From Candidatus Pacearchaeota archaeon (GTDB lineage Archaea > Nanobdellota > Nanobdellia > Pacearchaeales > GW2011-AR1), in contig JAFCDH010000010.1 of the NCBI GenBank assembly GCA_017609795.1, positions 1 through 32,481 on the forward strand: DNA of 32,481 bases, in the 5' to 3' direction. The translations under genes and the position numbers were made by a program. Each line of letters starts with the position of its first letter. Within the stretch, counting starts at the first letter, position 1. This document shows positions 1-17,957 of this stretch, piece by piece. A model generated the notes under the pieces. The model saw nothing but the letters and a program-made list of their open reading frames with translations. It was not told where the DNA came from and did not search any database.

Positions 1-182
1 CCACCACTCTCTCTTATTGCATTATTCCTTTCCTGAGCCATATGATATTGCATTCCAACATCTCCTAAAACATGCATTCTATGAATATTAGCAGGAGTAT
101 TTTCTATACATCCATTAACTCCTAAAGCCAAAGCTCCACCTAATAAACATCTTCCTAAATATCCTAATTTATTTGGTTTCAT
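1..182 (-). CDS. Hypothetical secreted/lipoprotein-like protein, N-terminal fragment (gene runs off the left edge)
   Basis: Own reverse-strand translation from ATG at 182-180: MKPNKLGYLGRCLLGGALALGVNGCIENTPANIHRMHVLGDVGMQYHMAQERNNAIRESGG. Hydrophobic N-terminus ends in the lipobox-like LGVNGC. Preceded by a copy of the intergenic repeat. Truncated, so absent from the ORF track. Confidence 0.35.
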   Translation of the reverse strand, partial: MKPNKLGYLGRCLLGGALALGVNGCIENTPANIHRMHVLGDVGMQYHMAQERNNAIRESG

Positions 183-385: not shown

Positions 386-2143
386 TTAAACCCCTGCTTT
401 AGCTTTTATCTCACTCATAAAAGCATCTCCAATCTTTTGTTTATCACCATCAATTTTCCATTCAATTCCATCATCTGTATATTTTCCAGCAATATTAACA
501 TAAGCACCACAATCTCCAAGAGAATAGCAAATCTCATTCATTTTTTTAGCATAACTTTGTTCTAAACATTCGCAATTATCTTTACATTTTCTTTTTTCTA
601 ATAATCCTTTTTCATAAGTTACAACACAGACTGAATTTCCTAAAGAACAGATACTTGAAGCATCTCCTTCATCCCAGAATTTTAATCCAGCAGGAACATT
701 TGGAACACAAGCTCCTCCGCCAACCTGCACCCCAGAGCCTTTTTCTTCATCTTTATCATCCCCTCCACCAAAAAGCCCGCCTATAAACTCTCCTGTAATT
801 GGAGCTACTGCTTGTCCTGTAATTCCTCCCTGAAACCCTCCTGTACTTCCTCCACTAAAAACAGGATTAGAACCAGCTCCTGCTTCAGCACTTTCAGTTG
901 TTAATCCAGTAAAATGAGCTCCTTCTAACCAATAACAATCTCTTTTATCAGTATTTAAACAATCATCTTCTTCATCTTGGTCAATACAATCAGTCCATCT
1001 ATTAATTCTGCAAGCAGCTTCTATAAATCCTTCTCCAGCACCAGACTCAATAACTCCTTCATAACAAACTTCGTTTCTAAAATCAGCACAAGGTTCAATT
1101 GTTTCTTCACCTGCAATACAAACATGTCTAAAATGTCTGCTTCCTACTGCATCTGCTCCTTCACCAACATTTCCATCATAAATACACCAGCTTTCTCCAT
1201 TTTTATAATCATTTCCATCTTCAGTATTATAACAATTTAAATCAGTACAATAATAATTACCATAACTTGCACTACCTTTTGAACAAATACTTCCTTTAAA
1301 ATAATCACAATTTCCACAAGTTCTTGAACCAGCGTTTGCATTTTCAACACCATAACCACAACTTTCAGATTTATCAATTACTTTCTTCCAATAAGATTTA
1401 TCATTTATTTTAGAACCATCATAAATGTTAGCTTGATTCCCACAAGTATCTAAAAAATAAACTTCATCTTTTCCTTTAATACAAGCAGTCTTAGTAGAAG
1501 GCCCACAATTAGTTGCTAATTCTTCTGCAGAACATAAATAATCTTTAAAAAATTCAGTATCAGAAGTTTGTCCTTCTACTGTTTGTGATTTTAAACATTC
1601 TCCACGAGTTGTAAATCTACAAGTTCTTTGATAATCAATTTCATAAACACAAGCACCTTCATCTTGTGCAGCAGCAAGTGCAATACATGTTGTTTCATCT
1701 CCAACATCATTTCTAAAATTAGTTTCTAATCCAAATAAGCCAGATAATCTTTTGCATCTAGTTAATGTTACAAAACTTGCTTGAGTTCCTAAAACACAAC
1801 AACCAAGATTACATTGAGGAATATTACATTCTGCATCATCAATCCAAGTCCCATTTCCATCATTACAAACTTTCTGAGGAGTATTTTCCATGCACAATCC
1901 TTCTTGAGAATCATAACAACAACCAGATTTACAAAAACTAGTTGCATCACAAGAAGTTGGAGTTTTTCTAAAACCAGTATTACAATTTTCTTCTAATGTA
2001 TTTTGACACCAAGCACCAGATTGAGTTTTTTCACAACATGCATTTGCTGCAGGCCATGTTTGCTCTTGAGCAAACATAAGAGGAACAATAAGCAAATTAA
2101 ATACAATTATTATTCCTAAATATATTTTTGTTTTATTGACCAT
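386..2143 (-). CDS. Secreted cysteine-rich protein P1, paralog of the N-terminal ~500 aa of ORF 3874..7362 (family not recognised)
   Basis: 585-aa ORF with a signal-like N-terminus (IYLGIIIVFNLLIVPLMFA then QEQ) and about 45 Cys. Collinear similarity to the 1162-aa ORF, e.g. NGESWCIYDGNVGEGADAVGSRHFRHVCIAGEETIEPCADFRNEVC vs NGESWCEYDGTIGDGRDVVGSRHVKHLCFMGEERIEPCQDYRNQIC, and SLGDCGAYVNIAGKYTDDG vs SLGDCGGYVNIAGEYTDDG. Confidence 0.8.
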   Translation of the reverse strand: MVNKTKIYLGIIIVFNLLIVPLMFAQEQTWPAANACCEKTQSGAWCQNTLEENCNTGFRKTPTSCDATSFCKSGCCYDSQEGLCMENTPQKVCNDGNGTWIDDAECNIPQCNLGCCVLGTQASFVTLTRCKRLSGLFGLETNFRNDVGDETTCIALAAAQDEGACVYEIDYQRTCRFTTRGECLKSQTVEGQTSDTEFFKDYLCSAEELATNCGPSTKTACIKGKDEVYFLDTCGNQANIYDGSKINDKSYWKKVIDKSESCGYGVENANAGSRTCGNCDYFKGSICSKGSASYGNYYCTDLNCYNTEDGNDYKNGESWCIYDGNVGEGADAVGSRHFRHVCIAGEETIEPCADFRNEVCYEGVIESGAGEGFIEAACRINRWTDCIDQDEEDDCLNTDKRDCYWLEGAHFTGLTTESAEAGAGSNPVFSGGSTGGFQGGITGQAVAPITGEFIGGLFGGGDDKDEEKGSGVQVGGGACVPNVPAGLKFWDEGDASSICSLGNSVCVVTYEKGLLEKRKCKDNCECLEQSYAKKMNEICYSLGDCGAYVNIAGKYTDDGIEWKIDGDKQKIGDAFMSEIKAKAGV

Positions 2144-2212
2144 TTTTTTATATTATAATTTATTTTTTTCTTTATTATATTATTCTTCGGTATTTTAATG
2201 GATGTTTATGTT

Positions 2213-2313
2213 TTATTATCTGAGTAGCTTAAGCTTAATCCCATTTTCTTTAAGTTTTGTTATGAATAGCTTAATCTTCTCAACATTCTCATCCTATGCT
2301 TATAAGATTCTAG
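2213..2313 (-). repeat. Intergenic repeat copy E2
   Basis: Plus strand reads ttattatctgagtagcttaagc...agcttaatcttctcaacattctcatcctatgcttataagattc. The distal 43 nt (2268-2310) match 3020-3062 with 3 mismatches. Confidence 0.75.
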
Positions 2314-2326
2314 TTTATATTTTATC

Positions 2327-2674
2327 TTATTTATTTTTTTCTTTATTTATTATTTCTTTTATTTGGATTTTTAGTTTAGGGATATCTTGTTTAATAACAT
2401 CCCAAACAGTTTTAAAATCAACACCAAAATAATAATGAATCATTTTGTCCCTAATTCCTGCAATCCCTTTCCATTCTACATTAGGATATTTTTTTCTAAA
2501 TTCAGAAGGTATATTTTTTATAGCTTCACCAATAATCTCAATTCTCCTTATTGTAGCATCTTTCAAAAGATTATCCTTTTTGAATTTATTTTTTGTTATA
2601 TTGTTCATACTTTTTATTATCTTATCTATTTCATCCCGGATATGGTTGATAAATACTAAAGAATCCCTTTTCAT
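2327..2674 (-). CDS. hepT: HEPN-domain (DUF86) toxin of an MNT-HEPN pair
   Basis: 115 aa with an RX4H-type motif in GIAGIRDKMIHYYFGVD. Overlaps the upstream nucleotidyltransferase gene by 4 nt (ATGA), the classic MNT-HEPN arrangement. Confidence 0.8.
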   Translation of the reverse strand: MKRDSLVFINHIRDEIDKIIKSMNNITKNKFKKDNLLKDATIRRIEIIGEAIKNIPSEFRKKYPNVEWKGIAGIRDKMIHYYFGVDFKTVWDVIKQDIPKLKIQIKEIINKEKNK

Positions 2675-2964
2675 ATTATTCTTACCTCCTCTGCCAAAAT
2701 TCTTTCTTTTAAATAAGGACTAATCCCATTATATGTTAATAAGTCAACTTTTTTTTGTAAAATCTTTTTAAGAAGCATTTCAAGTTTTACTAAATCAAGT
2801 AAACTAAATCTTTTCCCCTTAACATCAACTAAAATATCAACATCACTATTTTTCTTTTCCTCACCTCTTGCATAACTACCAAATATCCCTGCTTTCTTAA
2901 CTCCATGGTCTTTTAGAGTCTTTACAATTTGTTTTTTTATTTTATTTACATTATTTTTTACCAT
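2671..2964 (-). CDS. mntA: Minimal nucleotidyltransferase (MNT) antitoxin
   Basis: 97 aa with GIFGSYARGEEKKNSDVDILVD, the GS...DxD motif of the pol-beta superfamily. Paired with the HEPN gene. Confidence 0.8.
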   Translation of the reverse strand: MVKNNVNKIKKQIVKTLKDHGVKKAGIFGSYARGEEKKNSDVDILVDVKGKRFSLLDLVKLEMLLKKILQKKVDLLTYNGISPYLKERILAEEVRII

Positions 2965-2973
2965 TTTATATTA

Positions 2974-3063
2974 TTTTTCTATATCTCTATAATCTTAGAG
3001 CTTTGAAGATGACTTGTATAACTTAATCTTCTCAACATTCTCGTCCTATGCTTATCAGATTCC
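2974..3063 (-). repeat. Intergenic repeat copy E3 (mosaic)
   Basis: The proximal half tttttctatatctctataatcttagagctttgaagatgacttgtata equals the proximal half of copy 8139..8238 apart from a 1-nt indel. The distal half equals the distal half of copy 2213..2313. Confidence 0.8.
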
Positions 3064-3066
3064 AAA

Positions 3067-3834
3067 TCACCCAATCAATCCAGCAGGTAATGCCAAACTC
3101 CTTGAGGCAAACATAAATTTATTTTCTTCATAATCTCTATCAGTTAAAATATAAATTGTTGTTCCTTCACCTTGTTTTTTCTTTTCAACTTTTAATGAAG
3201 GATAATACATCATATAAGTCATAGTTTCTGAATCCCCATAACGAGCTTCATAATTTGAGATTGAACTTGCAATCATAACCATATCATATAATTTGGAAGA
3301 CACATCTGTTTTAATAGATTTATATGCTTCGGTAGTTTCTTTTGTAATTCTTAAATCAGCATCTATATTAATAATAACATTATTAGGAACTAAAGAATAT
3401 GAAATCTCAGGATTTTTCATAGAAACACTATAACCTTTTCCTTCAAGCGAAGCTTTAACAGAATCAATGCAATTTTTAATTCTAGGATCAGAATATTTTT
3501 TTATCTCTTGTTCAATTGATTGTTTTAACAAAGGTTTTTGCATTATACAAGTTTTATAATATTCTTCTGTATAACACAAATAATCTACTTTATTTCCTTG
3601 ATATAAATAATAATGTTCAGGATCTAAACTCCCTCCCTGAACTTTCAAAATATTAATAGCTTCTTCAACAGGTTCTTGAGCACATTTTTTAATTTGATTT
3701 ACAGGAGTTTCAGGACTAAAAATAGAAAATATATTTTCCTTTCCAGTTAGTAATATCACTAAAACAATTATAATTGCTATTGCAAGTATTATAAATACTG
3801 TTACTTGTGCGCGCTTACTCTTTTTTCCTACCAT
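3067..3834 (-). CDS. Membrane-anchored or pilin-like small protein A, paralog of ORF 8246..9055
   Basis: 255 aa. N-terminus KKSKRAQVTVFIILAIAIIIVLVILL resembles an archaeal class III (prepilin-like) signal or a TM anchor. Conserved LCYTEEYYKTCIMQKPLL block and C-terminal ALPAGLIG. Lies 39 nt downstream of the giant ORF with no repeat between, so likely co-transcribed. Confidence 0.7.
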   Translation of the reverse strand: MVGKKSKRAQVTVFIILAIAIIIVLVILLTGKENIFSIFSPETPVNQIKKCAQEPVEEAINILKVQGGSLDPEHYYLYQGNKVDYLCYTEEYYKTCIMQKPLLKQSIEQEIKKYSDPRIKNCIDSVKASLEGKGYSVSMKNPEISYSLVPNNVIINIDADLRITKETTEAYKSIKTDVSSKLYDMVMIASSISNYEARYGDSETMTYMMYYPSLKVEKKKQGEGTTIYILTDRDYEENKFMFASRSLALPAGLIG

Positions 3835-3873
3835 CTTTTTATATTTATTTAACTCATCCCTTGTTTATAAATT

Positions 3874-6800
3874 TTAACTAATCAACGAATAACCTTTAAC
3901 TTTTCTTTTACCTCCTTTTTTTCCATATTCATCTTTACATTGGATAATATAAGTTCTTAATTGCCAATTTCCAATATGTTCAATTCCATCTCCACTCATA
4001 ATCTCTGCTTCATCCCAATTAAATTCATCAAATGAATATCTACATTCAGCTTGCTCATCTGTAATAACTTTCATACCACTATCATAATACATTCTTATAA
4101 TTCTAGGTCCTGTACTATCAATCCTTACTCTAAATAAAGTTGAAGTTTCAGCAGTATTTCCAGCAACATCTTCACATCTAATATCAACCTCATATCTTCC
4201 CCTTGTCATTCTATTAAATACTTGATTATGATAATTAGAATCTGTTTCATAAAATCCAATTTCTCCAACTCCAAAGTCATAATAACATTTTGCTTTTCCT
4301 TGTTCAGCACCACCAGAAGTTTTAACTTGTAATTCAACTGTCATAGGTTCAACACCAGAAAAAATCTCAGCATTATTAATTGGTCTAACTTCATCAATCA
4401 TAAGCTCAGAAGCAGATTTTTGCAAAGAGTAAGCATAACTTTCTGTCATTGTATTTTTATTATCAGAAATATCTTGACATTTAATATAAATATCACTATT
4501 CTCATCTAAGTTAGTAAGATTAGTTTCACAAGCCCATCCATATAATCCATAATCTTCTAAATCAGTTTTACAACTCATTTGATTTTCCATTAAATCATAC
4601 CCTCTATCTTCATTACTATATTTACAATTTGAAGGTTCATTAATCCAAATATCTAATTCTTGTTTAGTTTGATTATAACCTATATAACCATTATTTTCAG
4701 GTTCTGTTCTTGCAATTCTTGGAGCAGTTAAATCAGGACCTGGTTCAACACAAGTTCTTATTGTATAACTTGCTGCATTAATAGCTCCATTAATGCTTTT
4801 ACATTTTACATAAAAGTTAATTTCACCTAAAGCTTTTATTTGTTCATCAGTTAAATTATATTGATTTCTAAATGCTTCAGGACTTGGCATAAACATTAGG
4901 TTTGTATGATTTGCTAAATATAAATTACTTCCACCAAAATAATCTGTCATTTGATCATAAGTATGCAAAGGATCTTCACTTATTTTACATTGAGCAGGTT
5001 TATCTGTTTCAATTCCAAATTCAATAGGAGTAAATTCAGGAATACACCCAAGATTATCACTTTCAACTAATCTAAATCCATTTGCACTAATATCATAATA
5101 TTCATAACCTTTTGTCATTGTTCCAAACAAAGGACTTATCCTAGGACTGCTAACATCAGTAGGAGAATTATCAATACATAATTCTTGATCTGTTCCTTTA
5201 TTAATAAACTCACATGTTTGCCCTAAACTTTGACATCTATATTCTGTACATGGAGTTTCAAAAGGATCATTTGCATTACATTTATAACAATTATCCCCAC
5301 CTGTTGGAGCCTGCCATGGCATACATTTAAAATTTACAATTACTTTTTTTGATTTTCCTATTCCTAGGGCGAGCATTGTTATTGCTATTATGATTCCGAT
5401 TATACCTAGAGGTTTTAAAGCAGGAGTTCCCCAAATAGCTAGAGCAGCAACAACTACTCCTCCAGAAACAATCCATGCAGTTGAAGATTTTACTCCAAAC
5501 CCTGTACTTAAAAAATTTTGAACAGACCATATTGCGGCAGCAGTAGCTACTGCATTTCCAAATGCTGTTGTCGCTGTTTTAGTTCCTGTAGCCGCACCAG
5601 CCCCATGAGGTGCACCTGCAGCTGTGATTGCAGAAGAAGCACTTGTGCTAGTCCCAATACTAGGTCCAAGATTACCAATAATTTCTCCAACACCAGTACC
5701 TATATCACCAATAACAGGTAATCCTGCAAGAGTTTTATAAACACCAGACATTAAATCAATTCCTAAAGCTCCTAATCCTGCAACAGCCATTCCAGCAATT
5801 TTTAATTTACTTATTCCTCCACCCTCATATTCAGGATTTTCAGGACTTAACCAAGCTCCTCCACCTAAAAAACTAAGATTCCCAGGCTCAGCAGGGTCTT
5901 GTCCAGGATTATTACGAGCATATTTTCTATATTGTTCACCCCCTATTTTTCCAGCATCAGAACTATATCCATCATCAGTATATTCTCCTGCAATATTTAC
6001 ATAACCCCCACAATCTCCTAAAGAAGTACATAGCTCATTCATTTGTTGTGTAAATATAGATTTTTCACAATCACAATTAGCTACACAGTCCCATCCAACA
6101 AATTTTCTATGTGAAAATCTTTTAACATAAATCACAGTGCATGTTTGGCTTGCCATAGAACATGCCATTTCAGCATTTTTTCCACTTTCTTCACTAGACA
6201 GGTCAAATCCTGCAGGATATTTAGGAACACACATATCAAAATTAAATTTATCAATATTAACTCCTTTAATAATACAATCAGGATTTTCATCACACTCTTC
6301 TCTCATCTTTTCAGTGTTTTCTCTGGTATTATAATCTAAACAACTTCTCCAATTATTAACTCTGCAAGCAGCCTCTGAAAAACTTCCACCCTCATTTAAA
6401 TCAGTTTTAGATTCAACACAAATTTGATTTCTATAATCTTGGCAAGGTTCTATTCTTTCTTCACCCATAAAACAAAGATGTTTTACATGTCTGCTTCCAA
6501 CAACATCTCTTCCATCACCTATTGTTCCATCATATTCACACCAACTCTCTCCATTTCTTTTTCCAATGTCTTCACAATTCACACTTTTACAAGCAGGTTC
6601 TCCTGCAACTAAACCACAATAATTACCAATAAATAAACTACATTCTTCAGCAATATCTTCTTTATTTCCACAAGAATCAAACCAATAAACACTATCTTTT
6701 CCTTCAACACATTCTTTATGGTCTTTAGCAACACAATTAGTTTCTAAACTTTCATCAGAACAAAAAACATCTTTATAAAAATTCCCACCTCTGCCTCTGC

Positions 6801-7362
6801 ATTCTTCACTAGTTATAAACCTACATTCATCATCTAAAATACAAGCACCTTCATCATCTCTTTCAGCTAAAAATATACATTCTATCTCAGTATTAATTTC
6901 AGGCCTAAAATCAGTTTCCAAACCTAAAAATCCTGATTCAACTTCACAATTTCTTTCAGATGTAAAAAAAGCATCATTTCCTAAAACACAACAACCTCTT
7001 GAACATTGGGCAATATTACAAACCTCATTATCAAACCATTGTCCATTACAACTTCTTTTAGGAGTTTTTTCATCACATAATCCTGTTCCTGAACTATAAC
7101 AACAACCTAATTTGCAAAAACTTGTTTCTTCACACATAGTAGGAGCAGATTGAGCTTCTTGTTTACATTCTTCATCTGCAACAAACTGACAAGAACTTCC
7201 ATCATTTGTTTCTTCACAACAAGAATATCCTGGAAGTGTTTGCGCACTAACACTTCCTGTTGCAGAATATACTAAATAACAAAATGCAAAAGTAGATATT
7301 ATTAATATTAAAATCTGAAAATAACTCATCTGCGCTTTTTTACTAAAATATTTTTTTATCAT
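3874..7362 (-). CDS. Giant cysteine-rich surface protein P2 (N-terminal P1-like domain, Gly/Ala-rich hydrophobic segment, C-terminal beta-rich repeats)
   Basis: 1162-aa ORF with a signal-like N-terminus. Residues ~45-500 are paralogous to P1. Residues ~505-680 are Gly/Ala-rich with several hydrophobic helices (e.g. WIVSGGVVVAALAIWGTPALKPLGIIGIIIAITMLALGIG). The C-terminal ~480 aa carry 3-4 repeats of an Ig-like-looking unit, each with a conserved Cys (AQCKIS, SNCKYS, AKCYYD, AECRYS). Confidence 0.85.
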   Translation of the reverse strand: MIKKYFSKKAQMSYFQILILIISTFAFCYLVYSATGSVSAQTLPGYSCCEETNDGSSCQFVADEECKQEAQSAPTMCEETSFCKLGCCYSSGTGLCDEKTPKRSCNGQWFDNEVCNIAQCSRGCCVLGNDAFFTSERNCEVESGFLGLETDFRPEINTEIECIFLAERDDEGACILDDECRFITSEECRGRGGNFYKDVFCSDESLETNCVAKDHKECVEGKDSVYWFDSCGNKEDIAEECSLFIGNYCGLVAGEPACKSVNCEDIGKRNGESWCEYDGTIGDGRDVVGSRHVKHLCFMGEERIEPCQDYRNQICVESKTDLNEGGSFSEAACRVNNWRSCLDYNTRENTEKMREECDENPDCIIKGVNIDKFNFDMCVPKYPAGFDLSSEESGKNAEMACSMASQTCTVIYVKRFSHRKFVGWDCVANCDCEKSIFTQQMNELCTSLGDCGGYVNIAGEYTDDGYSSDAGKIGGEQYRKYARNNPGQDPAEPGNLSFLGGGAWLSPENPEYEGGGISKLKIAGMAVAGLGALGIDLMSGVYKTLAGLPVIGDIGTGVGEIIGNLGPSIGTSTSASSAITAAGAPHGAGAATGTKTATTAFGNAVATAAAIWSVQNFLSTGFGVKSSTAWIVSGGVVVAALAIWGTPALKPLGIIGIIIAITMLALGIGKSKKVIVNFKCMPWQAPTGGDNCYKCNANDPFETPCTEYRCQSLGQTCEFINKGTDQELCIDNSPTDVSSPRISPLFGTMTKGYEYYDISANGFRLVESDNLGCIPEFTPIEFGIETDKPAQCKISEDPLHTYDQMTDYFGGSNLYLANHTNLMFMPSPEAFRNQYNLTDEQIKALGEINFYVKCKSINGAINAASYTIRTCVEPGPDLTAPRIARTEPENNGYIGYNQTKQELDIWINEPSNCKYSNEDRGYDLMENQMSCKTDLEDYGLYGWACETNLTNLDENSDIYIKCQDISDNKNTMTESYAYSLQKSASELMIDEVRPINNAEIFSGVEPMTVELQVKTSGGAEQGKAKCYYDFGVGEIGFYETDSNYHNQVFNRMTRGRYEVDIRCEDVAGNTAETSTLFRVRIDSTGPRIIRMYYDSGMKVITDEQAECRYSFDEFNWDEAEIMSGDGIEHIGNWQLRTYIIQCKDEYGKKGGKRKVKGYSLIS

Positions 7363-7464: not shown

Positions 7465-8130
7465 TTATTTATTCTCTTCAGCCTCCTTAAAATCTTCTTT
7501 AGTCAATTTAATACAAACATTTACTAATCTAATTAATTCATTACATCTTGAAAAAGGGCTATCTCTTTTTCTTTCAAAATAAGTCCATAGAATTGTTTTA
7601 ATCCCTTTTTTCTTTAATTTTTCAATAACCGGAACAAAATCAGAATCTCCAGAAACTAGTGCAATCCCTTTAACATTATCAGATTCTAAAGGAACACTTG
7701 CCAAATCCATTCCTAAATACATATCAACCCCTTTTTGTTTATAAACAAAAATATTATTAATTTTTAATCTCTGAGTTCTTCCTTCTCTAACAATAATATT
7801 ATCTTTTTTAAATCTAGAAATAAATTTATCATATAATTTCTTTTTTTCATTTTCTTTAATACTAGATTTTTTGCTTTGAAATGGGGGGGCATCATAAAGA
7901 TAAATCTTTTTAACAATACATTTGGTTTTTTTTGCAAGTGTTTCAACAAAATTTCTTACATTATATCTTAAACCTTCATTAAAGAAATGTTTTTTAACCC
8001 TCATTAAATAAGCATTATCAATAAAAACAATAATTTTTAAAAAATCGTCCGGCAACCTCGAAAGATCACCGGGGAGTATCATATTATTATTATCTTTTCC
8101 TTCTTTATAAACTTTTTCATTATATTTCAT
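7465..8130 (-). CDS. NYN-domain (LabA/DUF88-like) predicted ribonuclease
   Basis: 221 aa. IVFIDNAYLM, GVDMYLGMDLA and ALVSGDSDFVPVIEKLKKKGIKT match the acidic-residue pattern of NYN/LabA proteins. Confidence 0.7.
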   Translation of the reverse strand: MKYNEKVYKEGKDNNNMILPGDLSRLPDDFLKIIVFIDNAYLMRVKKHFFNEGLRYNVRNFVETLAKKTKCIVKKIYLYDAPPFQSKKSSIKENEKKKLYDKFISRFKKDNIIVREGRTQRLKINNIFVYKQKGVDMYLGMDLASVPLESDNVKGIALVSGDSDFVPVIEKLKKKGIKTILWTYFERKRDSPFSRCNELIRLVNVCIKLTKEDFKEAEENK

Positions 8131-8245: not shown

Positions 8246-9055
8246 CTAAAACCCAGCTGGCAATGCACAGCTTTTAATTGCAAATTTAAATTCTTGATTT
8301 GTTGTTATATCTCTAATTGTGTAAATTGTATCTGAATCTCCTGTTCTAAATTTTTGAATATCATATTTAGGATAAATAATCATAAATCCTAAAATATCAA
8401 AATTGCAATATTCTGCTTCTTGATTTACAATTTCAGATGCAACCTTAGATAAATCATAAAGAGGATGAACCAAGTTTGCTTTAAATTCACTAAAGCTCTG
8501 GACCTTATCTCCCCTAGTCATTTTAAAATCTCTTTTAATATCAACAACAACTTTATTTTTCTGAAGTTTTGTTATTACCCCCATATCCCCCATTTCAATA
8601 TCATATCTTGATTCAAGTTCTGATTTTAAAGATTGAAAACAATTAGAAATTCTTGGTTGTATATAAGTAGTTATTTCCTTTTCCATATGTTCAATTAACA
8701 TTGGTCTTTGGTTTATACAAGGCTCATAATAATTAGCATTATAACATAAAAAAGTTATTTCTTCATTTCTGTAAATCATACTTCCTTTTGGCTCTAAATC
8801 TCCTCCTGTTTCTAATAAAATTTCAACAGCATCTTCAGTTGCTTCACGAGTACAGCTTTCAATATATGATTGAGGATTTGTTTCATCTCCAAAACCAAAA
8901 TCAGGTTTTTTAACTAAAAGAAAAAGTAAAAGCATAGAAACTACTAGTATCAAAGCTAAGATTATGAAGATTGTTACTTGCCCTGTCTTATTTTTAAAGA
9001 GGGGTTGACTTGTCAAGGGGATTCTTCCCCTTACAATTCTCATTTCTTCAACCAT
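8246..9055 (-). CDS. Membrane-anchored or pilin-like small protein B, paralog of ORF 3067..3834
   Basis: 269 aa. KNKTGQVTIFIILALILVVSMLLLFLLV is a hydrophobic N-terminus. Conserved LCYNANYYEPCINQRPML block and C-terminal ALPAGF. Collinear similarity to protein A. Confidence 0.7.
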   Translation of the reverse strand: MVEEMRIVRGRIPLTSQPLFKNKTGQVTIFIILALILVVSMLLLFLLVKKPDFGFGDETNPQSYIESCTREATEDAVEILLETGGDLEPKGSMIYRNEEITFLCYNANYYEPCINQRPMLIEHMEKEITTYIQPRISNCFQSLKSELESRYDIEMGDMGVITKLQKNKVVVDIKRDFKMTRGDKVQSFSEFKANLVHPLYDLSKVASEIVNQEAEYCNFDILGFMIIYPKYDIQKFRTGDSDTIYTIRDITTNQEFKFAIKSCALPAGF

Positions 9056-9315
9056 AAATTCACCCCTTGTTTTTTAATTTCAATAATCTTTTTTTCAATA
9101 AGAAGCCGCATTAAATATCCTTGAGCAGTATTCCAACTAACTTTTAGATGCTTAGCTAACTCAGAACTAGTAATCACCTTCTTTTTCCCAATATAGTTTA
9201 ATATCTTTTTTCTTATCTGTATATTCATAAGTAAATACCTATTAATATTATTATGAATATACATAGATATATAAATCTTTCTAAGAAATTTAATTAGATT
9301 TAAAATATAAATCAA
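9040..9315 (-). CDS. Small winged-helix DNA-binding protein
   Basis: ITSSELAKHLKVSWNTAQGYLMRLLIEKKIIEIKKQG is HTH-like. The true start is probably the internal Met (MNIQIRKKILNY...). Overlaps the start of ORF 8246..9055 by 16 nt. Confidence 0.45.
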   Translation of the reverse strand: MIYILNLIKFLRKIYISMYIHNNINRYLLMNIQIRKKILNYIGKKKVITSSELAKHLKVSWNTAQGYLMRLLIEKKIIEIKKQGVNLWLKK

Positions 9316-11127: not shown

Positions 11128-13599
11128 ATGGAATTTAAAGAAAAAAGAATTAGAGAAATAACTTTTATTTATTATTCTAGGATAGATGTCAGAAAAGCAA
11201 TTTTCAAGTTTTCAAAAAATAGAGAATGTATCCCAAGATATTATGAGGATTTTGGCAAGCGCCCAGATAATTTTCAATATCCTACAGATATTTTAGAGCA
11301 AGTTAAAAAAGGAGCAACATCTTTTCATTGTTCAGAAGAATTATGGAAAGATTCATTAGAAATTTCAAATGAATTATCAGAGCAAGAATTTAATGAACTA
11401 AGAGCAGGTTGGGATTTGCTTTTAGATGTAGATTCCCCTTATTTAGAATATAGCAAAATATACACTCAACTTTTAATAGATATTTTAAAGTTTCATGGAA
11501 TTGAAAATGTAGGAGTAAAATTCAGTGTATCCGGAGATACAGATATTTTAGTTAAACTAGGAAATCAAATAAAACTTGTTAGGATTAATCAAGTGGTAGA
11601 ATTACTAAAAAAAGAGATTAAATTAGAGGTTTTATCTTTAAATAAAAATCAAAAACTTCAATTCTCAAAAATTTATAATTATTTAGAACATGAAGATATA
11701 ATCTATGATATCTTTCATTCTCAAAGTAAAATTCCATTAAAAGTAACAGGTTATCATTCAGTTTTTGTTTGGAAAAATGGAGAAATTATTCAAAAAAAAG
11801 TTTCTGAGATAAATAAAGGAGATTTTCTTATTTCATTCAATACACAAAAAAATCCAATAAGAAAGGACATTAAAGAGATAACAAATAAATTCGAATTTTC
11901 AAAAAATCAGTTTTCTAAAAAAATAGTAGAAAATAAAATACAAGTAACATTAGATTTAATGAGATTAATAGGTTATTTTTTAGCAGAAGGACATACCACA
12001 AAAATAATAAACCAAACAGGATTTACATTTCATAAAAATGAAAGAGAATATATTGATGATGTGGTAAATTTATTAAAAACTATAACTAAAAGAAAAATTT
12101 CAATAAGACACCCAAATCCAAATTCCACACAAATATTAATCCATTCAAAAGAATGGTATAATTTTTTCAAAAATAATTGTGGAGAAAAAAAGAATAAACA
12201 TGTACCTCAATTTGCATGGACTTCCTCTAGAGAATTATTTTTAGAGATGTTAAAAGGATACATAAGAGGAGATGGATACAAAGTAGGAGAATATAGCATT
12301 ATTGTTAAATCTGTTTCAAAGAGATTAATAAAAGAATTCGTTTGGTTATGCAAATTAAATAATATTTCTTGTTCCTTGTCTTCAGAAAAAAATAAACCAC
12401 ATATAATGCCTCAAGGGAATATCTTTCCAGGAAGTTTTGTTTATATTTTAAAAATCCCAAAATCTGAATTATCTTCTTTGGAATTTAATAGAGATAGAAA
12501 TAAATTCTCACCTTGTCCTGGGGATAAAATTTTTCCAATAGACGGGCTTAAAGTAGTTTATAAAAACATAAAACCAAAGATGTTTAATTATCATAGACCT
12601 GAGCAAATGACCTTGAATAAAAAAAGAGCAAATTTAAAAAGAATAAGAAAAGTTTTAGAATGGTTTGAAAAATTTAAATCAGTGGATTATGATGAGGAAT
12701 CTAAAAAAATCATTTCCAATTACTGGAAATTATTTAATTCTGATATAAATGTTGTAGAAATAAATAATATAATAAAAAAAGACAAACAAAAAGTTTATGA
12801 TATTTCTGTTGAAGAAACAGAATCTTTTTTTGGAAATGATTATCCTATATTGTTACATAATTCAGGCTCAAAAGGTTTTCATGTCATCATCCCTTGGACA
12901 GCATTTCCAAAAGAAATTTATGGACAAAAAACAAAAGATATGTTTCCAAAATGGCCAAGAGCAATTTGTGAATATCTTTCTGAAACAATAAGACCTAAAT
13001 TATCTGAAAAAATTTTTGAACAAGAAAGTTTAAAAGAAGTAGCAAAAAAAACAGGAAAAAAACAAGAAGAATTACTAATAACTGAATGTTTAATATGTAA
13101 TAGACCTGCTGTAAAAAAAGAACTTGTAACTTGGTTATGCCCTTCTTGTAAAAATCAACTAATAATGATAAAAAAAAATAAAAAAATACCCAAGTGTCCA
13201 AATGATAATTGCAGAAAAGAGATGATTTCAACTTTTTCTAAAGAAATCTTTTTTTGTGATTATTGTAATATTAGTTCTGATAAAAATCCTGAGAAGTTTG
13301 AAAAAACAAGAGAAAAAACAGAGGTTTTAATAGAAGCAGATTTAATTTTAGTTGCTCCAAGACATTTATTTAGAATGCCTTATAGTCTTCATGAAAAAAC
13401 AGCTTTGTCCTCAATAGTTATAGATAAAAATAAAATTAAGGATTTTCAAATAACAGATGCTAAACCATTTAAAATAGATATAAAAGAGTTTTACCCTAAT
13501 GCAAAGCCAGAAGAAGCAAGAGAACTTTTATTGCAAGCCTTAGATTGGAAAGAGCAAAAACAAAGACAAGAACAGAAGAAATTTTTCCTCCATGTGTAA
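11128..13599 (+). CDS. priS: DNA primase catalytic subunit PriS, interrupted by an intein
   Basis: N-extein carries WDLLLDVDS (DxD). After removal of residues 133-578 the junction reads GVKF-SGSKGFHVIIP, the conserved FSGxxGFH primase motif. Zn-ribbon-like CLICN...CPSC and CPNDNC...CDYC follow in the C-extein. Confidence 0.85.
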   Translation: MEFKEKRIREITFIYYSRIDVRKAIFKFSKNRECIPRYYEDFGKRPDNFQYPTDILEQVKKGATSFHCSEELWKDSLEISNELSEQEFNELRAGWDLLLDVDSPYLEYSKIYTQLLIDILKFHGIENVGVKFSVSGDTDILVKLGNQIKLVRINQVVELLKKEIKLEVLSLNKNQKLQFSKIYNYLEHEDIIYDIFHSQSKIPLKVTGYHSVFVWKNGEIIQKKVSEINKGDFLISFNTQKNPIRKDIKEITNKFEFSKNQFSKKIVENKIQVTLDLMRLIGYFLAEGHTTKIINQTGFTFHKNEREYIDDVVNLLKTITKRKISIRHPNPNSTQILIHSKEWYNFFKNNCGEKKNKHVPQFAWTSSRELFLEMLKGYIRGDGYKVGEYSIIVKSVSKRLIKEFVWLCKLNNISCSLSSEKNKPHIMPQGNIFPGSFVYILKIPKSELSSLEFNRDRNKFSPCPGDKIFPIDGLKVVYKNIKPKMFNYHRPEQMTLNKKRANLKRIRKVLEWFEKFKSVDYDEESKKIISNYWKLFNSDINVVEINNIIKKDKQKVYDISVEETESFFGNDYPILLHNSGSKGFHVIIPWTAFPKEIYGQKTKDMFPKWPRAICEYLSETIRPKLSEKIFEQESLKEVAKKTGKKQEELLITECLICNRPAVKKELVTWLCPSCKNQLIMIKKNKKIPKCPNDNCRKEMISTFSKEIFFCDYCNISSDKNPEKFEKTREKTEVLIEADLILVAPRHLFRMPYSLHEKTALSSIVIDKNKIKDFQITDAKPFKIDIKEFYPNAKPEEARELLLQALDWKEQKQRQEQKKFFLHV
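11524..12861 (+). mobile_element. Intein with LAGLIDADG homing-endonuclease domain inside priS
   Basis: 446 aa. Starts SVSGDTDILV (block A, Ser1), has VTGYHSVFV (TxxH block B) and two LAGLIDADG motifs (LIGYFLAEGHT, LKGYIRGDGY). Ends VYDISVEETESFFGNDYPILLHN followed by +1 Ser. Confidence 0.8.
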
Positions 13600-14146: not shown

Positions 14147-14836
14147 ATGGAAAAATCTAGTGAATATTCAATTCCATGCCCATTAGCTCAAAGACATGAA
14201 AATGCAGAAAGAATAAGAAAAGCTATGGCCAATAATCTAAATAATGGTAGATATCTTTATCAAATACTTTTTAGAAGAGCTAGTAAAATAATAAATACAT
14301 CTGATCGTGAAGAGATTGTTTGTAAATTTTTTTTAAATATGGTAACACAAAGACTAGAAACATTCAAATATTTTGTAGATGATAGAAAAAAAATAATTGA
14401 GAATCCTAGATTTATGGCATGGGCTTCTAAAGATATTAGAAATCTATGTGTAGACTATTTAAGAGATAAATATCGCACAAATCAAGCAGAAAATTTTACT
14501 GATTTTGAGATAAGAAAATATGGTAGAAGAAAAAGAAATGAACCTACAGACTCTCCTTTTAAAGATTCATTAGTTCAAAATACTTTTCAACAACCAGAAC
14601 AAAGATTAGCAAACTTAGAAGCAAGACAAGAATTAGGAAAAGCTCTTAAAAAACTTGATAAAAAATATAGAGATGTAATATTAAGATATTATTTTAAAGG
14701 ATTAAAATATGAAGAAATTAGAAAAACATTAAATCTTCCTCTTGGAACTGTAAGAAGCAGATTAAATAAAGCTAAAAAAAATTTAAAAAACCTTCTTTTA
14801 AAAGATGGAGAAATGATAATTAATATGAAGAATTAA
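14147..14836 (+). CDS. Sigma-70 family (ECF-like) protein with regions 2 and 4
   Basis: RFMAWASKDIRNLCVDYLRDKYR is region-2-like. LDKKYRDVILRYYFKGLKYEEIRKTLNLPLGTVRSRLNKAKKNLKNLL is a textbook region 4 HTH. Confidence 0.65.
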   Translation: MEKSSEYSIPCPLAQRHENAERIRKAMANNLNNGRYLYQILFRRASKIINTSDREEIVCKFFLNMVTQRLETFKYFVDDRKKIIENPRFMAWASKDIRNLCVDYLRDKYRTNQAENFTDFEIRKYGRRKRNEPTDSPFKDSLVQNTFQQPEQRLANLEARQELGKALKKLDKKYRDVILRYYFKGLKYEEIRKTLNLPLGTVRSRLNKAKKNLKNLLLKDGEMIINMKN

Positions 14837-14881: not shown

Positions 14882-16765
14882 ATGAAAAGAGAGATGCTTG
14901 AAGGAGGGTTACGGAAGGGAAACTTGGTTCCCTTGCTATCACTTATATTAGTATTTAGTTTATTAATCATTCCTGTATTTGCACAAGATGGAGAAAATGG
15001 GGATGAAGATATAGGTAAAGGAGTTTCTGAAGATGAAATTGATAAAGCATATTCTTGTTTAAAATCTCAATTAAGTGAAAATTGTGGAGATACAAAATCA
15101 ACAGAACAAACAGCTTTAAGTTTGCTTGCAATAGCTTATGATTCTGGAAAACAATCTGATTGTAAAACTTCTCTTAATAGTAAAAAATCAGGAAGTTGTT
15201 GGGGAACAACTTCTTCAGCAAACTGTGATTTAAAATCAACTTCTTTAGCAGTTCTTGCCCTAGATAATATTAATTCAGCTCCTAATGATGCTATTGAATG
15301 GATATTAAGCAAAGAAAAACTATCTCCAGATTTAGATTGGTTTTTAGAAATTGATGCAGATGAAGCAACTTCTTGTGATATACAAGTTAATGAAGGAAGT
15401 GCAAAAACATTCCAAATGAATGAAGATAAAAAAATGTCTGGAAGCACTACTTGTTTATCTCCTGCAGAATCAAATTATTATTTAAAAATATCTGATTCTT
15501 GTCTTGATGATGAGTTTAAAATAAGCTGTGATAAAGATTTTAAAACAACTTTAATTTATAAAAAATCAGGAAGTAGTGTTTATTATATTTCAAGTCAGAC
15601 TCATTCTTCTTCTTCAGGCGGAACCACTAATGAACAAGTAAATGCATATTGTTTTGCAAAATCAAGTAGTTGTGATTATGAAGGAAGTTTATGGGCTTCT
15701 TTAGCTTTAGCAAGAACAGGAGAAGAAATCTCTCCTTATATTCCATATCTTACTTCAATGTCTGATGAAAACAAAGAATATCTTCCATCAGCTTTCTTAT
15801 ATATGTTAACTAATGAAGATGATTATTATTCTGATTTAACTAATCAGCAAAAACAAGGAAAATATTGGGAAGAAACAGGTAAAAAATTCTATGACACATC
15901 AATAGCACTTTTAGCATTACAAAATGTAAATATTGAAGAAGTAACAAATACTAAAGATTATTTATTAGAAATTCAAGATAATTCTGGATGTTGGAATTCA
16001 AATAATATAAGAGATACAGCATTTGTTTTATATTCTGCATGGCCTAAATCTCCTGTAATATCTGGAGATGGAAGATCAGATTGTGAAAGCTTTAATCATT
16101 ATTGTGTTTCATCAGGAGAATGTTTAACAGAAGACACTTTAGATGATTTTTATTGTTTACATTTAAGCGATGTTTGTTGTAAAACAAGACCTGCAGAACA
16201 AACATGTGCTGAAAAACAAGGAATTATTTGTTCTTCAACTCAAGAGTGTAGTGGAGCAGATTCTATAGCTTCAGATACTAATTATTGTTGTCTTGCTTCT
16301 TGTATTGAAATTAAAAAAAACGAATGTGAAAACCAAGGATATTCTTGTAAAACCTCTTGTTCATCTGATGAAGTAGAAAAAACAGGGTATAACTGTGATT
16401 ATGTTGGAGATGTTTGTTGTGATAAAGAAGAAGGAGGTTGGGGAATAATTATCCTTCTTATAATTTTAATAATTCTTGTAATTTTAGCAATTATATTTAG
16501 AAATCAATTAAAAATCTGGTGGTTTAGAATCAAAAGCAAATTAAGATTTGGAAAAGGGCCTTCAGAATCTTTACAACCACCTATGCCTCCAATGGGAGGA
16601 GTTCCTCAATTACAAAGACCAATGCCAAGACATATTATACCAAGAAGACCTACTCATCGCCCTAGAAGAGCTTTATCAAGAAGACCTCTTAAAACTCCAA
16701 AAACTCCAAAAGCTCCAGATGCTTTTGAAGATACAATGGATAAGTTAAGGAAGATGAGTAAGTGA
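14882..16765 (+). CDS. Membrane-anchored surface protein: alpha/alpha-toroid (prenyltransferase/terpene-cyclase-like) repeats, three Cys-rich modules, TM helix, Pro/Arg-rich tail
   Basis: Signal peptide (LLSLILVFSLLIIPVFAQD). Repeats TEQTALSLLAIAY, LKSTSLAVLAL, YEGSLWASLALA, YDTSIALLALQ and EIQDNSGCWNSNNIRDTAFVLYSAW. Three C-x6-7-C-x3-5-C-x11-18-CC modules. TM helix WGIIILLIILIILVILAIIF. Only 45 nt after the sigma-like gene. Confidence 0.8.
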   Translation: MKREMLEGGLRKGNLVPLLSLILVFSLLIIPVFAQDGENGDEDIGKGVSEDEIDKAYSCLKSQLSENCGDTKSTEQTALSLLAIAYDSGKQSDCKTSLNSKKSGSCWGTTSSANCDLKSTSLAVLALDNINSAPNDAIEWILSKEKLSPDLDWFLEIDADEATSCDIQVNEGSAKTFQMNEDKKMSGSTTCLSPAESNYYLKISDSCLDDEFKISCDKDFKTTLIYKKSGSSVYYISSQTHSSSSGGTTNEQVNAYCFAKSSSCDYEGSLWASLALARTGEEISPYIPYLTSMSDENKEYLPSAFLYMLTNEDDYYSDLTNQQKQGKYWEETGKKFYDTSIALLALQNVNIEEVTNTKDYLLEIQDNSGCWNSNNIRDTAFVLYSAWPKSPVISGDGRSDCESFNHYCVSSGECLTEDTLDDFYCLHLSDVCCKTRPAEQTCAEKQGIICSSTQECSGADSIASDTNYCCLASCIEIKKNECENQGYSCKTSCSSDEVEKTGYNCDYVGDVCCDKEEGGWGIIILLIILIILVILAIIFRNQLKIWWFRIKSKLRFGKGPSESLQPPMPPMGGVPQLQRPMPRHIIPRRPTHRPRRALSRRPLKTPKTPKAPDAFEDTMDKLRKMSK

Positions 16766-16961: not shown

Positions 16962-17957
16962 ATGAAAAAAGAGATAATAGCATTAGTATTAATCATATTC
17001 TTAATACCAACAATCTTAGCAATAGATGTATCTTTATCAAAAACAAGTTACCAACCACAAGAAACATTACAAGCAGAAATAACAGGAAATTTTATTTCTT
17101 TAACTAATGAAAATATTTTAATCTATAAAGGAGAGGCAGTACATTCAACACCAACAATCTCTGATTTAACTAAACAAGGAAATATTTATTATTTTTATGC
17201 AGTTCTTCCTAATCAAGAAGGGAATTTTAGTTTAAAGATTGAAAATTCCCAATATACACAAGCAGGACAAACTAAAACAGATACAATAACTAAGGATTTT
17301 AAAATTAAAAGAACAAATGAATCTGCTTTATCTATAAACCAAGGATTTGTTATTACTAGTGAAGATTTTTCAATTAAAGTAAAAAGTTTAAATAATAATC
17401 AAGAAATTTCAGCAATATTAGAATCAACAAAAGAAATACACAATACCACCTTAATAGAAGATTCTGAAAAAATTTTTAGTTTTTCAGTTTTAGCAGAAGA
17501 AACAATAAAAACTAATCTTAAAATTAATAATTATAATATTCCTGTTTTTATTATAGAAAAAACACAACCTATTATAAATAAAACAAATAAATCAGAAATA
17601 AATCAATCTGAACCTAAAATTGATATAGAAAATAAAACAAAAGAAGAAATAGCAGCATTAAACTGTGTTGACATTGGTGAAAAATGTGAAGACAATGAAA
17701 AATGTGAAGGAGAGATTGTTTCAAGTTTAGATGGTTCTTGTTGTGTAGGAGATTGTATAGAAAAAAAACAAAAAAGCTATGCATGGATTATAGGAGTTAT
17801 AATTTTGATTATTCTTGCCACAACAATCTGGTTTTTTTATTCAAGAGCAAGAAAAAGACAAGCACCTAAATCTACAGAAGATATTTTAAGAGAAAAATCT
17901 GAAGATTTTGATGAGCGAATGAGTGGAGAAGTTAGTGGGAGTTTAGGAAGGAGTTGA
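16962..17957 (+). CDS. Membrane-anchored surface protein with one Cys-rich juxtamembrane module
   Basis: Signal peptide (IIALVLIIFLIPTILA), beta-rich ectodomain, CVDIGEKCEDNEKCEGEIVSSLDGSCCVGDC, then TM helix YAWIIGVIILIILATTIWFFY and a charged tail. Confidence 0.75.
   Translation: MKKEIIALVLIIFLIPTILAIDVSLSKTSYQPQETLQAEITGNFISLTNENILIYKGEAVHSTPTISDLTKQGNIYYFYAVLPNQEGNFSLKIENSQYTQAGQTKTDTITKDFKIKRTNESALSINQGFVITSEDFSIKVKSLNNNQEISAILESTKEIHNTTLIEDSEKIFSFSVLAEETIKTNLKINNYNIPVFIIEKTQPIINKTNKSEINQSEPKIDIENKTKEEIAALNCVDIGEKCEDNEKCEGEIVSSLDGSCCVGDCIEKKQKSYAWIIGVIILIILATTIWFFYSRARKRQAPKSTEDILREKSEDFDERMSGEVSGSLGRS

Follow-up and report, generated by a model that had tools for sequence, protein, structure and literature searches.

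Few uncultured archaea are as widespread as Pacearchaeota and Woesearchaeota, whose metabolism is minimal. What do two large Cys-rich proteins, encoded next to small pilin-like genes, build at the surface of such a cell? The question is raised by 32,481 nucleotides of Candidatus Pacearchaeota archaeon (assembly GCA_017609795.1, contig JAFCDH010000010.1, positions 1 to 32,481; hereafter the window, with a G+C content of ~26-30%), which encode the two proteins, P1 and P2. Our answer is that the Cys-rich family is real, large and uncharacterised, has no detectable known structural relative and lies within a conserved pilin-linked gene cluster. This makes the P1/P2 cluster a promising candidate for a surface apparatus that has so far escaped description.

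An orphan Cys-rich domain and the architecture of P2

P1 and P2 are both present as open reading frames (ORFs) on the minus strand (Table 1). Residues 11-572 of P1 align with residues 19-474 of P2 at 34% identity (BLASTP, E 6e-91). This sequence match lies far past chance and identifies the two as paralogs. The end-to-end relationship described in the initial annotation therefore holds, and every sequence block quoted there is found in the alignment (CCE.T..G..CQ, FCK.GCCY, QC..GCCVLG, LGLET.FR, GKD.VY..D.CGN, NGESWC, EAACR.N.W..C and SLGDCG.YVNIAG.YTDDG). The same annotation called both proteins giant and secreted. They are large rather than giant, and P2 is not simply secreted, having a hydrophobic anchor and an immunoglobulin (Ig)-like second half.

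Conservation was read from the columns of an alignment of 83 P1-type and P2-type sequences, in which 32 Cys columns are invariant in both families. The best-conserved block of the N-domain has the consensus NGESWC.Y.G..G.G.D.VGSRH.RH.C..GEE.IEPC.D[FY]RNE.C in P1 and is modelled by AlphaFold2 as two beta-hairpins with a predicted local distance difference test score (pLDDT) of ~95. Within this core block G334, W319, G345, C352 and the Cys columns are present in all 83 sequences, E317, S318, D331, S335 and R356 in 82 each, R336 in 81, H340, E347 and E350 in 78 each, and E346 in 76. The first His, H337, is kept in 74/83 and replaced in 9/83. Accordingly, GSRH..H, previously described as invariant together with GEE.IEPC, is not strictly so. 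The near-invariant polar residues of the block are E317, D331, R336, H340, E346, E347, E350, D354 and R356. Judged from conservation, the two blocks may form the functional site that had been proposed.

Residues 33-203 of P1 (window ~1535-2047) resemble three to four tandem units of the form GCC - beta-hairpin - short helix - C. Repeat units within the first ~190 residues are weakly supported by hhalign (E 0.006 over 22 columns and E 1.6e-4 over 9 columns).

The shared domain falls outside any named family, as had been suspected. P1 and the N-terminal half of P2 have no match in Pfam or NCBIfam at E <= 1 or in PHROGs at E <= 0.1. Single-sequence searches against PDB sequences returned nothing significant for the N-domain, and a profile built from the P1 alignment had no PDB match even at E <= 10. 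P1 was modelled separately because Foldseek with full-length P2 returned only matches of its C-domain to Ig arrays. The resulting AlphaFold2 model, with the 83-sequence alignment as input, is confident (mean pLDDT 84.4, predicted template modelling score 0.69, pLDDT 85-98 over most of residues 40-410) and consists mainly of beta-hairpins plus short helices. Foldseek found no match to it at E <= 0.001 in PDB or BFVD; the best PDB match had E 0.25, probability 0.06 and TM ~0.1, and the best BFVD match E 0.38.

Specific candidates gave the same answer. The N-domain shows no sequence or structural likeness to known Cys-rich extracellular modules or to viral and cellular fusogens; Foldseek linked the P1 model to no fusogen of class I, II or III and to no pore-forming toxin. 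P1 and P2 have no Pfam match to DUF2341 or the PilY1 beta-propeller at E <= 1, and Foldseek alignments of P1 to prolyl-oligopeptidase propellers are weak (E >= 0.25, TM ~0.1). S-layer families (e.g. PF05124 S_layer_C) match neither protein in Pfam or NCBIfam. Viral origin or carriage is unsupported, with no relative in a scan of IMG/VR. The literature yielded no earlier description of the Cys-rich domain, its fold, its split and fused forms or the cluster, and none of Cys-rich pilin-associated proteins in DPANN archaea.

The AlphaFold2 model of P2 (pLDDT 78.5) starts with a hydrophobic helix at residues 8-33. Its N-domain leads into a low-confidence Gly/Ala/Ser-rich stretch (residues 500-610), helices predicted at 601-621, 626-644 and 646-665, and a conserved GIGK[ST]KKK motif (KSKK in the P2 model). 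Among 63 orthologs the mean identity is 53% in the N-domain and 50% in the C-domain, compared to only 19-22% in the linker and helix region, the length of which varies from 140 to 268 residues. The sole PDB profile match of the P2 family, to the type III secretion translocator AopB (P2 residues 489-660, window ~5383-5898), has E 0.42; we discarded it as noise that is probably compositional.

In the model the fold of the C-domain is clearly Ig-like. It matches Ig, FN3, cadherin and GhpA arrays with E down to 3e-11 (Foldseek against PDB) and contains a Big_13-like strand motif of the D.xGN type. Big_13 itself (PF19077) scores 18.8 bits in P2 and 26.8 bits in a paralog from the related locus L001, both below the Pfam cut-off of 27 bits; one P2 ortholog (P0029) carries a precomputed PF19077 match. 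The domain starts with C-x11-C-x2-C-x9-C-x4-C, and its 19 conserved Cys are mostly paired inside the Ig-like domains.

N-glycosylation sequons distinguish the two halves. Over 64 orthologs the N-domain has 72 sequons compared to 259 expected (observed/expected, O/E, 0.28), and the C-domain is near neutral (O/E 1.19), with sequon columns conserved in 81-97% of orthologs, among them NLT at residue 836 in 97%. The depletion would be in keeping with selection against glycosylation in a domain that the glycosylation machinery can reach. Because a signal peptide precedes the N-domain, 41 of its Cys are conserved and its sequons are strongly depleted, it is almost certainly extracellular. In the anchor-bearing forms the N-terminal helix is conserved to an unusual degree (51% identity) and may therefore be retained.

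P1 lacks the anchor and the Ig-like half, and relatives point to where they are. For example, the product of the next large gene after P1 in L001 (16593-18992, 799 aa) has a signal peptide and a Gly/Ala-rich hydrophobic region in addition to a homolog of the P2 C-domain. In a second related locus, L002, the P1 domain and the anchor/Ig-like half form a single ORF of 1292 aa, which aligns to both halves of P2 (E 1e-97 and 2e-97). Since the downstream gene is a P2 C-domain homolog and is fused to the P1 domain in L002, these sequences indicate that the genome holds two paralogous copies of one architecture, the second of which is split in the window with P1 as its N-terminal half. The sequences extracted under the P1 label comprise 70 split and 12 long forms (>= 1000 aa), including at least 4 true fusions at the P1 position.

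Gene cluster, prepilin-like proteins and distribution

Gene order was determined by mapping the window proteins and the L001 downstream proteins on 80 retrieved loci by tblastn; synteny counts refer to the loci with enough flanking DNA. The canonical order is PCNA, a winged helix-turn-helix (wHTH) gene, partner A, P2, partner B, P1, the anchor-plus-Ig gene, four small genes (~170, 315, 190 and 170 aa) and, on the opposite strand, an HVO_A0114-type regulator. The cluster, of 10-12 genes, has two tandem modules, in each of which a prepilin-like partner of ~255 aa precedes a large protein. Partner A and P2 make up module 1. Module 2 is partner B and the same architecture, usually split into P1 and the anchor-plus-Ig-like gene.

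This arrangement is strongly conserved, across genomes whose PCNA shares a median of only 69% identity with that of the window. In 66/67 loci P1 has a partner as its immediate upstream neighbour, a P2-type gene is found upstream in 48/51 and two upstream partners in 46/51, and the next downstream gene encodes a C-domain in 55/56. All four small genes are found within 8-10 kb in 28/45 loci. The linkage to the pilin-like partner and the wHTH gene that the initial annotation had suggested is therefore strongly conserved in relatives, with neither a known family nor a loss of synteny to speak against it.

The cluster runs on past the window, to a lipoprotein-like gene that is cut by the window edge (Table 1) and then, in relatives, to the anchor-plus-Ig gene and the four prepilin-like genes. 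A small lipoprotein-like gene is sometimes found between P1 and the downstream large gene in relatives. Positional counterparts of the partial gene encode 147 aa in L001 and 123 aa in L002, and tblastn mapping detected no sequence homology between them and the window gene.

At its other end, the cluster is headed by the wHTH gene, which encodes 48-62 aa in L001, L002 and a third related locus, L003. The TTG at 9315 listed as the start of the wHTH ORF is probably not the true one; translation from the ATG at 9228 yields 62 aa, as in relatives. The gene shares 16 nt with partner A in the window (9040-9055) and 16-17 nt in L001, L002 and L003, a conserved overlap that suggests translational coupling of the two genes.

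Two insertions interrupt the order in the window. The HepT/minimal nucleotidyltransferase (MNT) toxin-antitoxin genes, which overlap by 4 nt, are placed between partner B and P1. They are not called at the matching position in L001-L003; the pair is a window-specific insertion outside the system. The NYN-domain gene was found by tblastn in 0/83 related loci. Being confined to the window among 84 sequences, it is likewise read as a genome-specific insertion and not as a part of the system.

Both pilin-like partners and the wHTH gene reported in the initial annotation are real, and partners A and B are themselves paralogs (E 4e-56). Archaeal class III signals are cleaved ahead of the hydrophobic domain and follow a rule by which -1 is G, A or S, -2 is charged and +1 is Gln (PMC4371748). 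The pilins Epd of Methanococcus maripaludis are processed at KGQV, KGQL, KGQI and RAQI, the +1 Gln being the hallmark of EppA substrates (PMC4371748). We applied the rule as [KR][GAS], then Q or F, then an uncharged 17-mer. It is satisfied by 83-94% of each of the six small families compared to 6-14% of the large proteins. The class III motif is found in 58/62 orthologs of partner B and 38/46 of partner A, and the consensus N-terminus of the partners is [KR][GAS]↓Q[VI]T[IV]F[IV]I (the arrow marks the predicted processing position). The four downstream families start with K[GA]Q..[MI]SFGMIFSIILIV (~170 aa, family a), KKG↓FE[MF]SFAW[LI]FAI (~315 aa), K[GA]↓Q[LM]KIQ[QE]MAF (~190 aa) and K[GA]↓QEE[MI]VGF (~170 aa, family b). 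By their N-terminal sequences, all six small proteins carry prepilin signal motifs of the EppA/PibD type.

Some genomes contain a third partner-like prepilin gene after the cluster. In L003 (18998-21489, plus strand) this gene is followed by one for a Cys-free secreted protein of 583 aa with an HExxH motif (AHEFGHIHH). Such a third partner-like gene beside another secreted protein suggests that the partner family may escort different large secreted proteins.

The family is widespread. P2 has 941 homologs at E <= 0.001, the best 120 of which are mostly 1036-1316 aa long and align with near-full coverage at 39-65% identity. A profile search of a representative library returned 4798 clusters (50% identity) at E <= 1e-3 and 2092 at E <= 1e-30; the profile kept the C-domain columns (1096 positions), and these counts thus mix both halves of P2. 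The best 150 matches, which are those listed, are nearly all P2-like. With each GTDB species represented by a single genome, at least 559 genomes have relatives; the labels among the matches listed are Pacearchaeota, Woesearchaeota, Nanoarchaeota, Nanoarchaeia or 'archaeon', save for one 'bacterium' record. Wherever the P1 and P2 homologs are named, they are named Pacearchaeota, Nanoarchaeia, Nanoarchaeota or Woesearchaeota, in agreement with the earlier guess of a DPANN source. One locus titled bacterium, L012 (JAUUWR010000018.1, metagenome-assembled genome CSMAG_44), has 71% identity to P1 in the best segment. Because it encodes an archaeal-type PCNA and the whole cluster, the bacterial label is probably wrong.

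Possible functions of the cluster

Our preferred reading, to which we give a probability of about 0.45, is a conserved pilin-associated surface apparatus of Pacearchaeales and Woesearchaeales that displays the Cys-rich domain and has P1 and P2 as its large subunits. The prepilin-like proteins, of which one would be dedicated to each large protein and four common to both, would build a short pilus, a pseudopilus or a platform close to the membrane. This pilus-like structure would hold or present both large proteins, as minor pilins do with PilY1-type tip proteins or as in the case of the subunits of the Sulfolobus bindosome. The disulfide-rich N-domain would face outward and do the work, with the near-invariant polar block (NGESWC...GSRH.RH...GEE.IEPC.D.R) as a putative ligand- or metal-binding site. 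Speculatively, the ligand would sit on a host cell or on a substrate surface; host attachment would be plausible for a DPANN cell.

Several results weigh against a pilin-associated apparatus. The six small families are without a Pfam or NCBIfam match; none of 143 members fits a model for pilins, archaellins or class III signals, and the prepilin assignment is for this reason carried by the N-terminal motif alone; pilins of DPANN archaea escape similarity searches (Makarova et al., PMC6393860). Genes for a FlaI/PilB ATPase, a TadC/FlaJ platform or a prepilin peptidase are found neither in the 32-kb window nor within 10 kb of the cluster in L001-L003. The large proteins of the P1/P2 type have Sec-type signals ending in VSA↓Q, not class III signals. 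Moreover, a single strong transmembrane segment followed by KSKKK would place the C-domain of P2 in the cytoplasm by the positive-inside rule. Finally, over 43 genomes the median identity to the window is 69% for PCNA, 53% for P1, 41-42% for the P2 halves and 45-50% for the partners, and P1 divergence tracks PCNA divergence (r 0.84). These values indicate that the large proteins are inherited vertically and are slow-evolving for adhesins. Host attachment would fit somewhat awkwardly with this slow evolution, and a constitutive envelope role would suit it at least as well.

An envelope role of this kind would make P2 and the P1/C-domain pair a constitutive, host-independent housekeeping scaffold for S-layer anchoring, spacing or biogenesis, with the class III proteins as anchors. 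Besides vertical inheritance and slow evolution for an exposed protein, this would be in line with the presence of the cluster in at least 559 species-level genomes of the lineage, its fixed position beside PCNA and primase, the about equal conservation of both ectodomains (50-53%) and an S_layer_C gene just downstream of the cluster in L001. That gene is, however, a separate S-layer-type gene, and P1 and P2 themselves have no S-layer family similarity; two duplicated modules and six prepilin-like genes exceed the needs of a simple anchor, and the conserved polar block of the N-domain resembles a binding site. We regard such a scaffold as rather unlikely, while taking it seriously. The same polar block could also be read as the core of a secreted enzyme, with the N-domain as a novel hydrolase that would act, for example, on host envelope polymers and use the core His, Glu and Asp in catalysis or metal binding. 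Near-invariance of the polar residues, lytic transglycosylase domains in other large extracellular proteins of Pacearchaeota and Woesearchaeota (PMC8204110) and the secreted HExxH protein preceded by a partner-like gene in L003 would agree with this. Nonetheless, the N-domain matches no enzyme family by sequence or fold, its first His is replaced in 9/83 sequences, and a dense architecture of disulfides and beta-hairpins is more typical of binding modules, which makes an enzyme very improbable.

Other readings depend on how the region between the two halves of P2 meets the membrane. On the Hessa scale, the last helix before GIGK[ST]KKK is the only strong transmembrane segment in 42/64 orthologs. 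P2 could accordingly be a type I transmembrane receptor, with the extracellular N-domain as sensor, one transmembrane helix and a cytoplasmic Ig-like C-domain in which CxxC...CxxxxC would be a putative zinc cluster; the Cys spacing at the C-domain start and the near-neutral sequon frequency of this half can be cited in favour. Simple hydrophobicity analysis is compatible with either side. An outside location is favoured by the Cys pair conserved in each Ig-like domain, as is usual for extracellular domains held by disulfide bonds, by the conserved sequons (above all NLT at residue 836), by nearest folds that are extracellular Ig, FN3 and cadherin arrays, by the Big_13-like D.xGN motif, and by stand-alone C-domain paralogs with their own signal peptide and Thr/Pro-rich linkers. 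We lean, by roughly two to one, to a C-domain outside the cell, the weaker Gly-rich helices giving a second membrane pass, and consider the receptor improbable. The Gly/Ala-rich segment might instead enter the membrane of a partner cell, P2 being a pore, translocon or fusogen with the N-domain as its targeting head. Here, the hydrophobic region of the orthologs is 16% Gly, has GxxxG at 1.27-fold above expectation and GxxxGxxxG in 30/64, and shares the conserved motifs FGNA[LV]AAA and GIGK[ST]KKK; the low AlphaFold2 confidence of this region, AopB as the only, if non-significant, PDB profile match and the cytoplasmic connections that DPANN cells form with hosts (PMC11329633) add to the case. 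But the AopB match is at chance level, likeness to fusogens or pore-forming toxins is absent, the region is the least conserved of the protein, as for a plain anchor or linker, and in the single DPANN system imaged at high resolution the nanotubes are host-derived. Such an inserting device is quite unlikely. An elaborate version, a novel archaeal machine for cell-cell contact confined to Pacearchaeales and Woesearchaeales, with a pseudopilus-like six-prepilin stalk, two disulfide-locked heads of novel fold that would recognise a host envelope, and Gly-zipper insertion of P2 and its split paralog into the host membrane as a conduit for lipids and nucleotides, would be a long shot.

Whichever function applies, a block of 'hypothetical proteins' becomes a defined unit: an orphan domain family with a confident model, a modular logic, six candidate prepilins and a regulator. 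Synteny in hundreds of species makes the cluster a source of specific targets for antibodies, cryo-electron tomography labelling, binding assays and metaproteomics. Should the N-domain prove to bind some structure of a host, it would offer the first molecular handle on how Pacearchaeota and Woesearchaeota recognise hosts; should it bind none, it would still belong to the core of the envelope in a major group of archaea.

Genomic surroundings and comparison with known systems

The remainder of the window holds housekeeping genes (PCNA, primase small subunit, Hjc resolvase, lysyl-tRNA synthetase, form III RuBisCO and ribosomal proteins) and some further surface proteins. The primase owes its length to an intein with a LAGLIDADG endonuclease that sits in the gene; primases of relatives are 438-521 aa long and have no intein. 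The sigma-70 region 4 protein has a bacterial-type sigma-70 domain in an archaeal genome and lies directly 5' of the genes for two more Cys-rich surface proteins. L001 also has a gene of 229 aa in the matching region. The two Cys-rich proteins, of 627 and 331 aa, carry a distinct Cys-rich repeat close to a transmembrane helix and a weak Flp1_like match (E 3e-6). Genes of 582-592 aa are found beside primase in L001-L003, in a position matching that of the 627-aa gene, and the one in L003 is also weakly Flp1_like. Sequons number 0 compared to 5 expected in the 627-aa protein and 7 compared to 3.6 expected in the 378-aa lamin-tail protein.

Table 1. Features of the window, with positions counted from its first nucleotide (aa, amino acids; arrow, predicted processing position)
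Feature	Position	Strand	Description
Next cluster gene, lipoprotein-like (MKPNKLGYLGRCLLGGALALGVNGC...)	1-182	-	Partial at window edge
P1	386-2143	-	585 aa, 45 Cys (7.7%); Sec signal and Cys-rich N-domain only
Best-conserved N-domain block in P1 (aa 313-360)	1064-1207	-	From column frequencies in 83 sequences
HepT-like RNase and minimal nucleotidyltransferase pair	2327-2964	-	HepT-like E 3.5e-27, NTP_transf_2 E 1.3e-17 (Pfam)
Partner B	3067-3834	-	255 aa, KRA↓QVTVFIIL...; directly upstream of P1 module
P2	3874-7362	-	1162 aa, 63 Cys; bipartite, membrane-anchored
P2 C-domain (aa 669-1162)	3877-5358	-	Cys cluster, then four to five predicted Ig-like beta-sandwiches
P2 linker and helices (aa 491-668)	5359-5892	-	Gly/Ala/Ser-rich, low model confidence
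P2 N-domain (aa 45-490)	5893-7230	-	Cys-rich, mainly beta, 41 conserved Cys
P2 core block	6418-6561	-	Core block of the N-domain
NYN-domain gene	7465-8130	-	Between partner A and P2; Pfam NYN E 1.2e-12
Partner A	8246-9055	-	269 aa, KTG↓QVTIFIIL...; upstream of P2 module
wHTH gene	9040-9228	-	62 aa; HTH_24 E 1e-5; heads cluster
Primase small subunit with intein	11128-13599	+	823 aa; Intein_splicing E 2e-15, LAGLIDADG_3 E 1e-9
Sigma-70 region 4 protein	14147-14836	+	229 aa; Sigma70_r4_2 E 4e-13
Two additional secreted Cys-rich proteins	14882-16765, 16962-17957	+	627 and 331 aa; C-terminal anchor
Surface protein	19264-20400	-	378 aa; lamin-tail domain LTD E 4e-9; transmembrane helix at C-terminus
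ORF	30020-31138	+	372 aa; adjoins RuBisCO gene; no Pfam match

Bacterial minor-pilin tip complexes, such as FimU-PilVWXE with PilY1 and the GspHIJK complex of type II secretion, offer one comparison. Like these, the cluster encodes four small pilin-like proteins beside a large surface protein that they could present. Unlike them, it has the archaeal signal type, two extra partners of ~255 aa and large proteins that are self-anchored, and the likeness comes from gene content alone. Likeness to Big_13 and Big_3_4 domains and to the Ig/FN3 arrays of adhesins is confined to the tandem beta-sandwiches of the P2 C-domain and does not include the Cys-rich N-domain.

The predicted secretion system of Makarova et al. 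2015 (arCOG01314/arCOG02884, PMC5898192) was dropped as a candidate, its signature DUF4350, MoxR ATPase and vWA being absent from the cluster. In the Sulfolobus bindosome, class III-signal surface proteins act without forming long filaments (PMC4371748). Prepilin-type signals on proteins with sizeable globular domains, possibly membrane-proximal, are common to both systems; the bindosome consists of sugar-binding ABC transporter subunits, whereas the cluster has no transporter genes or binding-protein folds. 'Module 98' comprises 51 mostly uncharacterised, largely membrane or extracellular families common to Pacearchaeota and Woesearchaeota (Castelle et al. 2021, PMC8204110). Given the same lineages and a similar, mostly membrane or extracellular location, the P1 and P2 families are probably among those listed there in bulk, and they are not described in that study.

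The closest parallel in gene content is an established archaeal pattern, the type IV pilus loci of Methanococci and Thermococci (clade 1) in which five or more minor pilins accompany two large adhesin-like proteins (Makarova et al. 2016, PMC4858521). The cluster departs from these loci in that it lacks genes for an ATPase, TadC or a peptidase within 10 kb (L001-L003) and has no DUF2341/PilY-type or other named domain in P1 and P2, and small proteins that match no pilin model; each large protein is also paired with a dedicated partner gene and has its own anchor. What it does share with them is a set of at least five small class III-signal proteins together with two large signal-peptide proteins, many with conserved Cys, and, with the Epd pilins of Methanococcus, the [KR][GA]↓Q processing motif in its small proteins.

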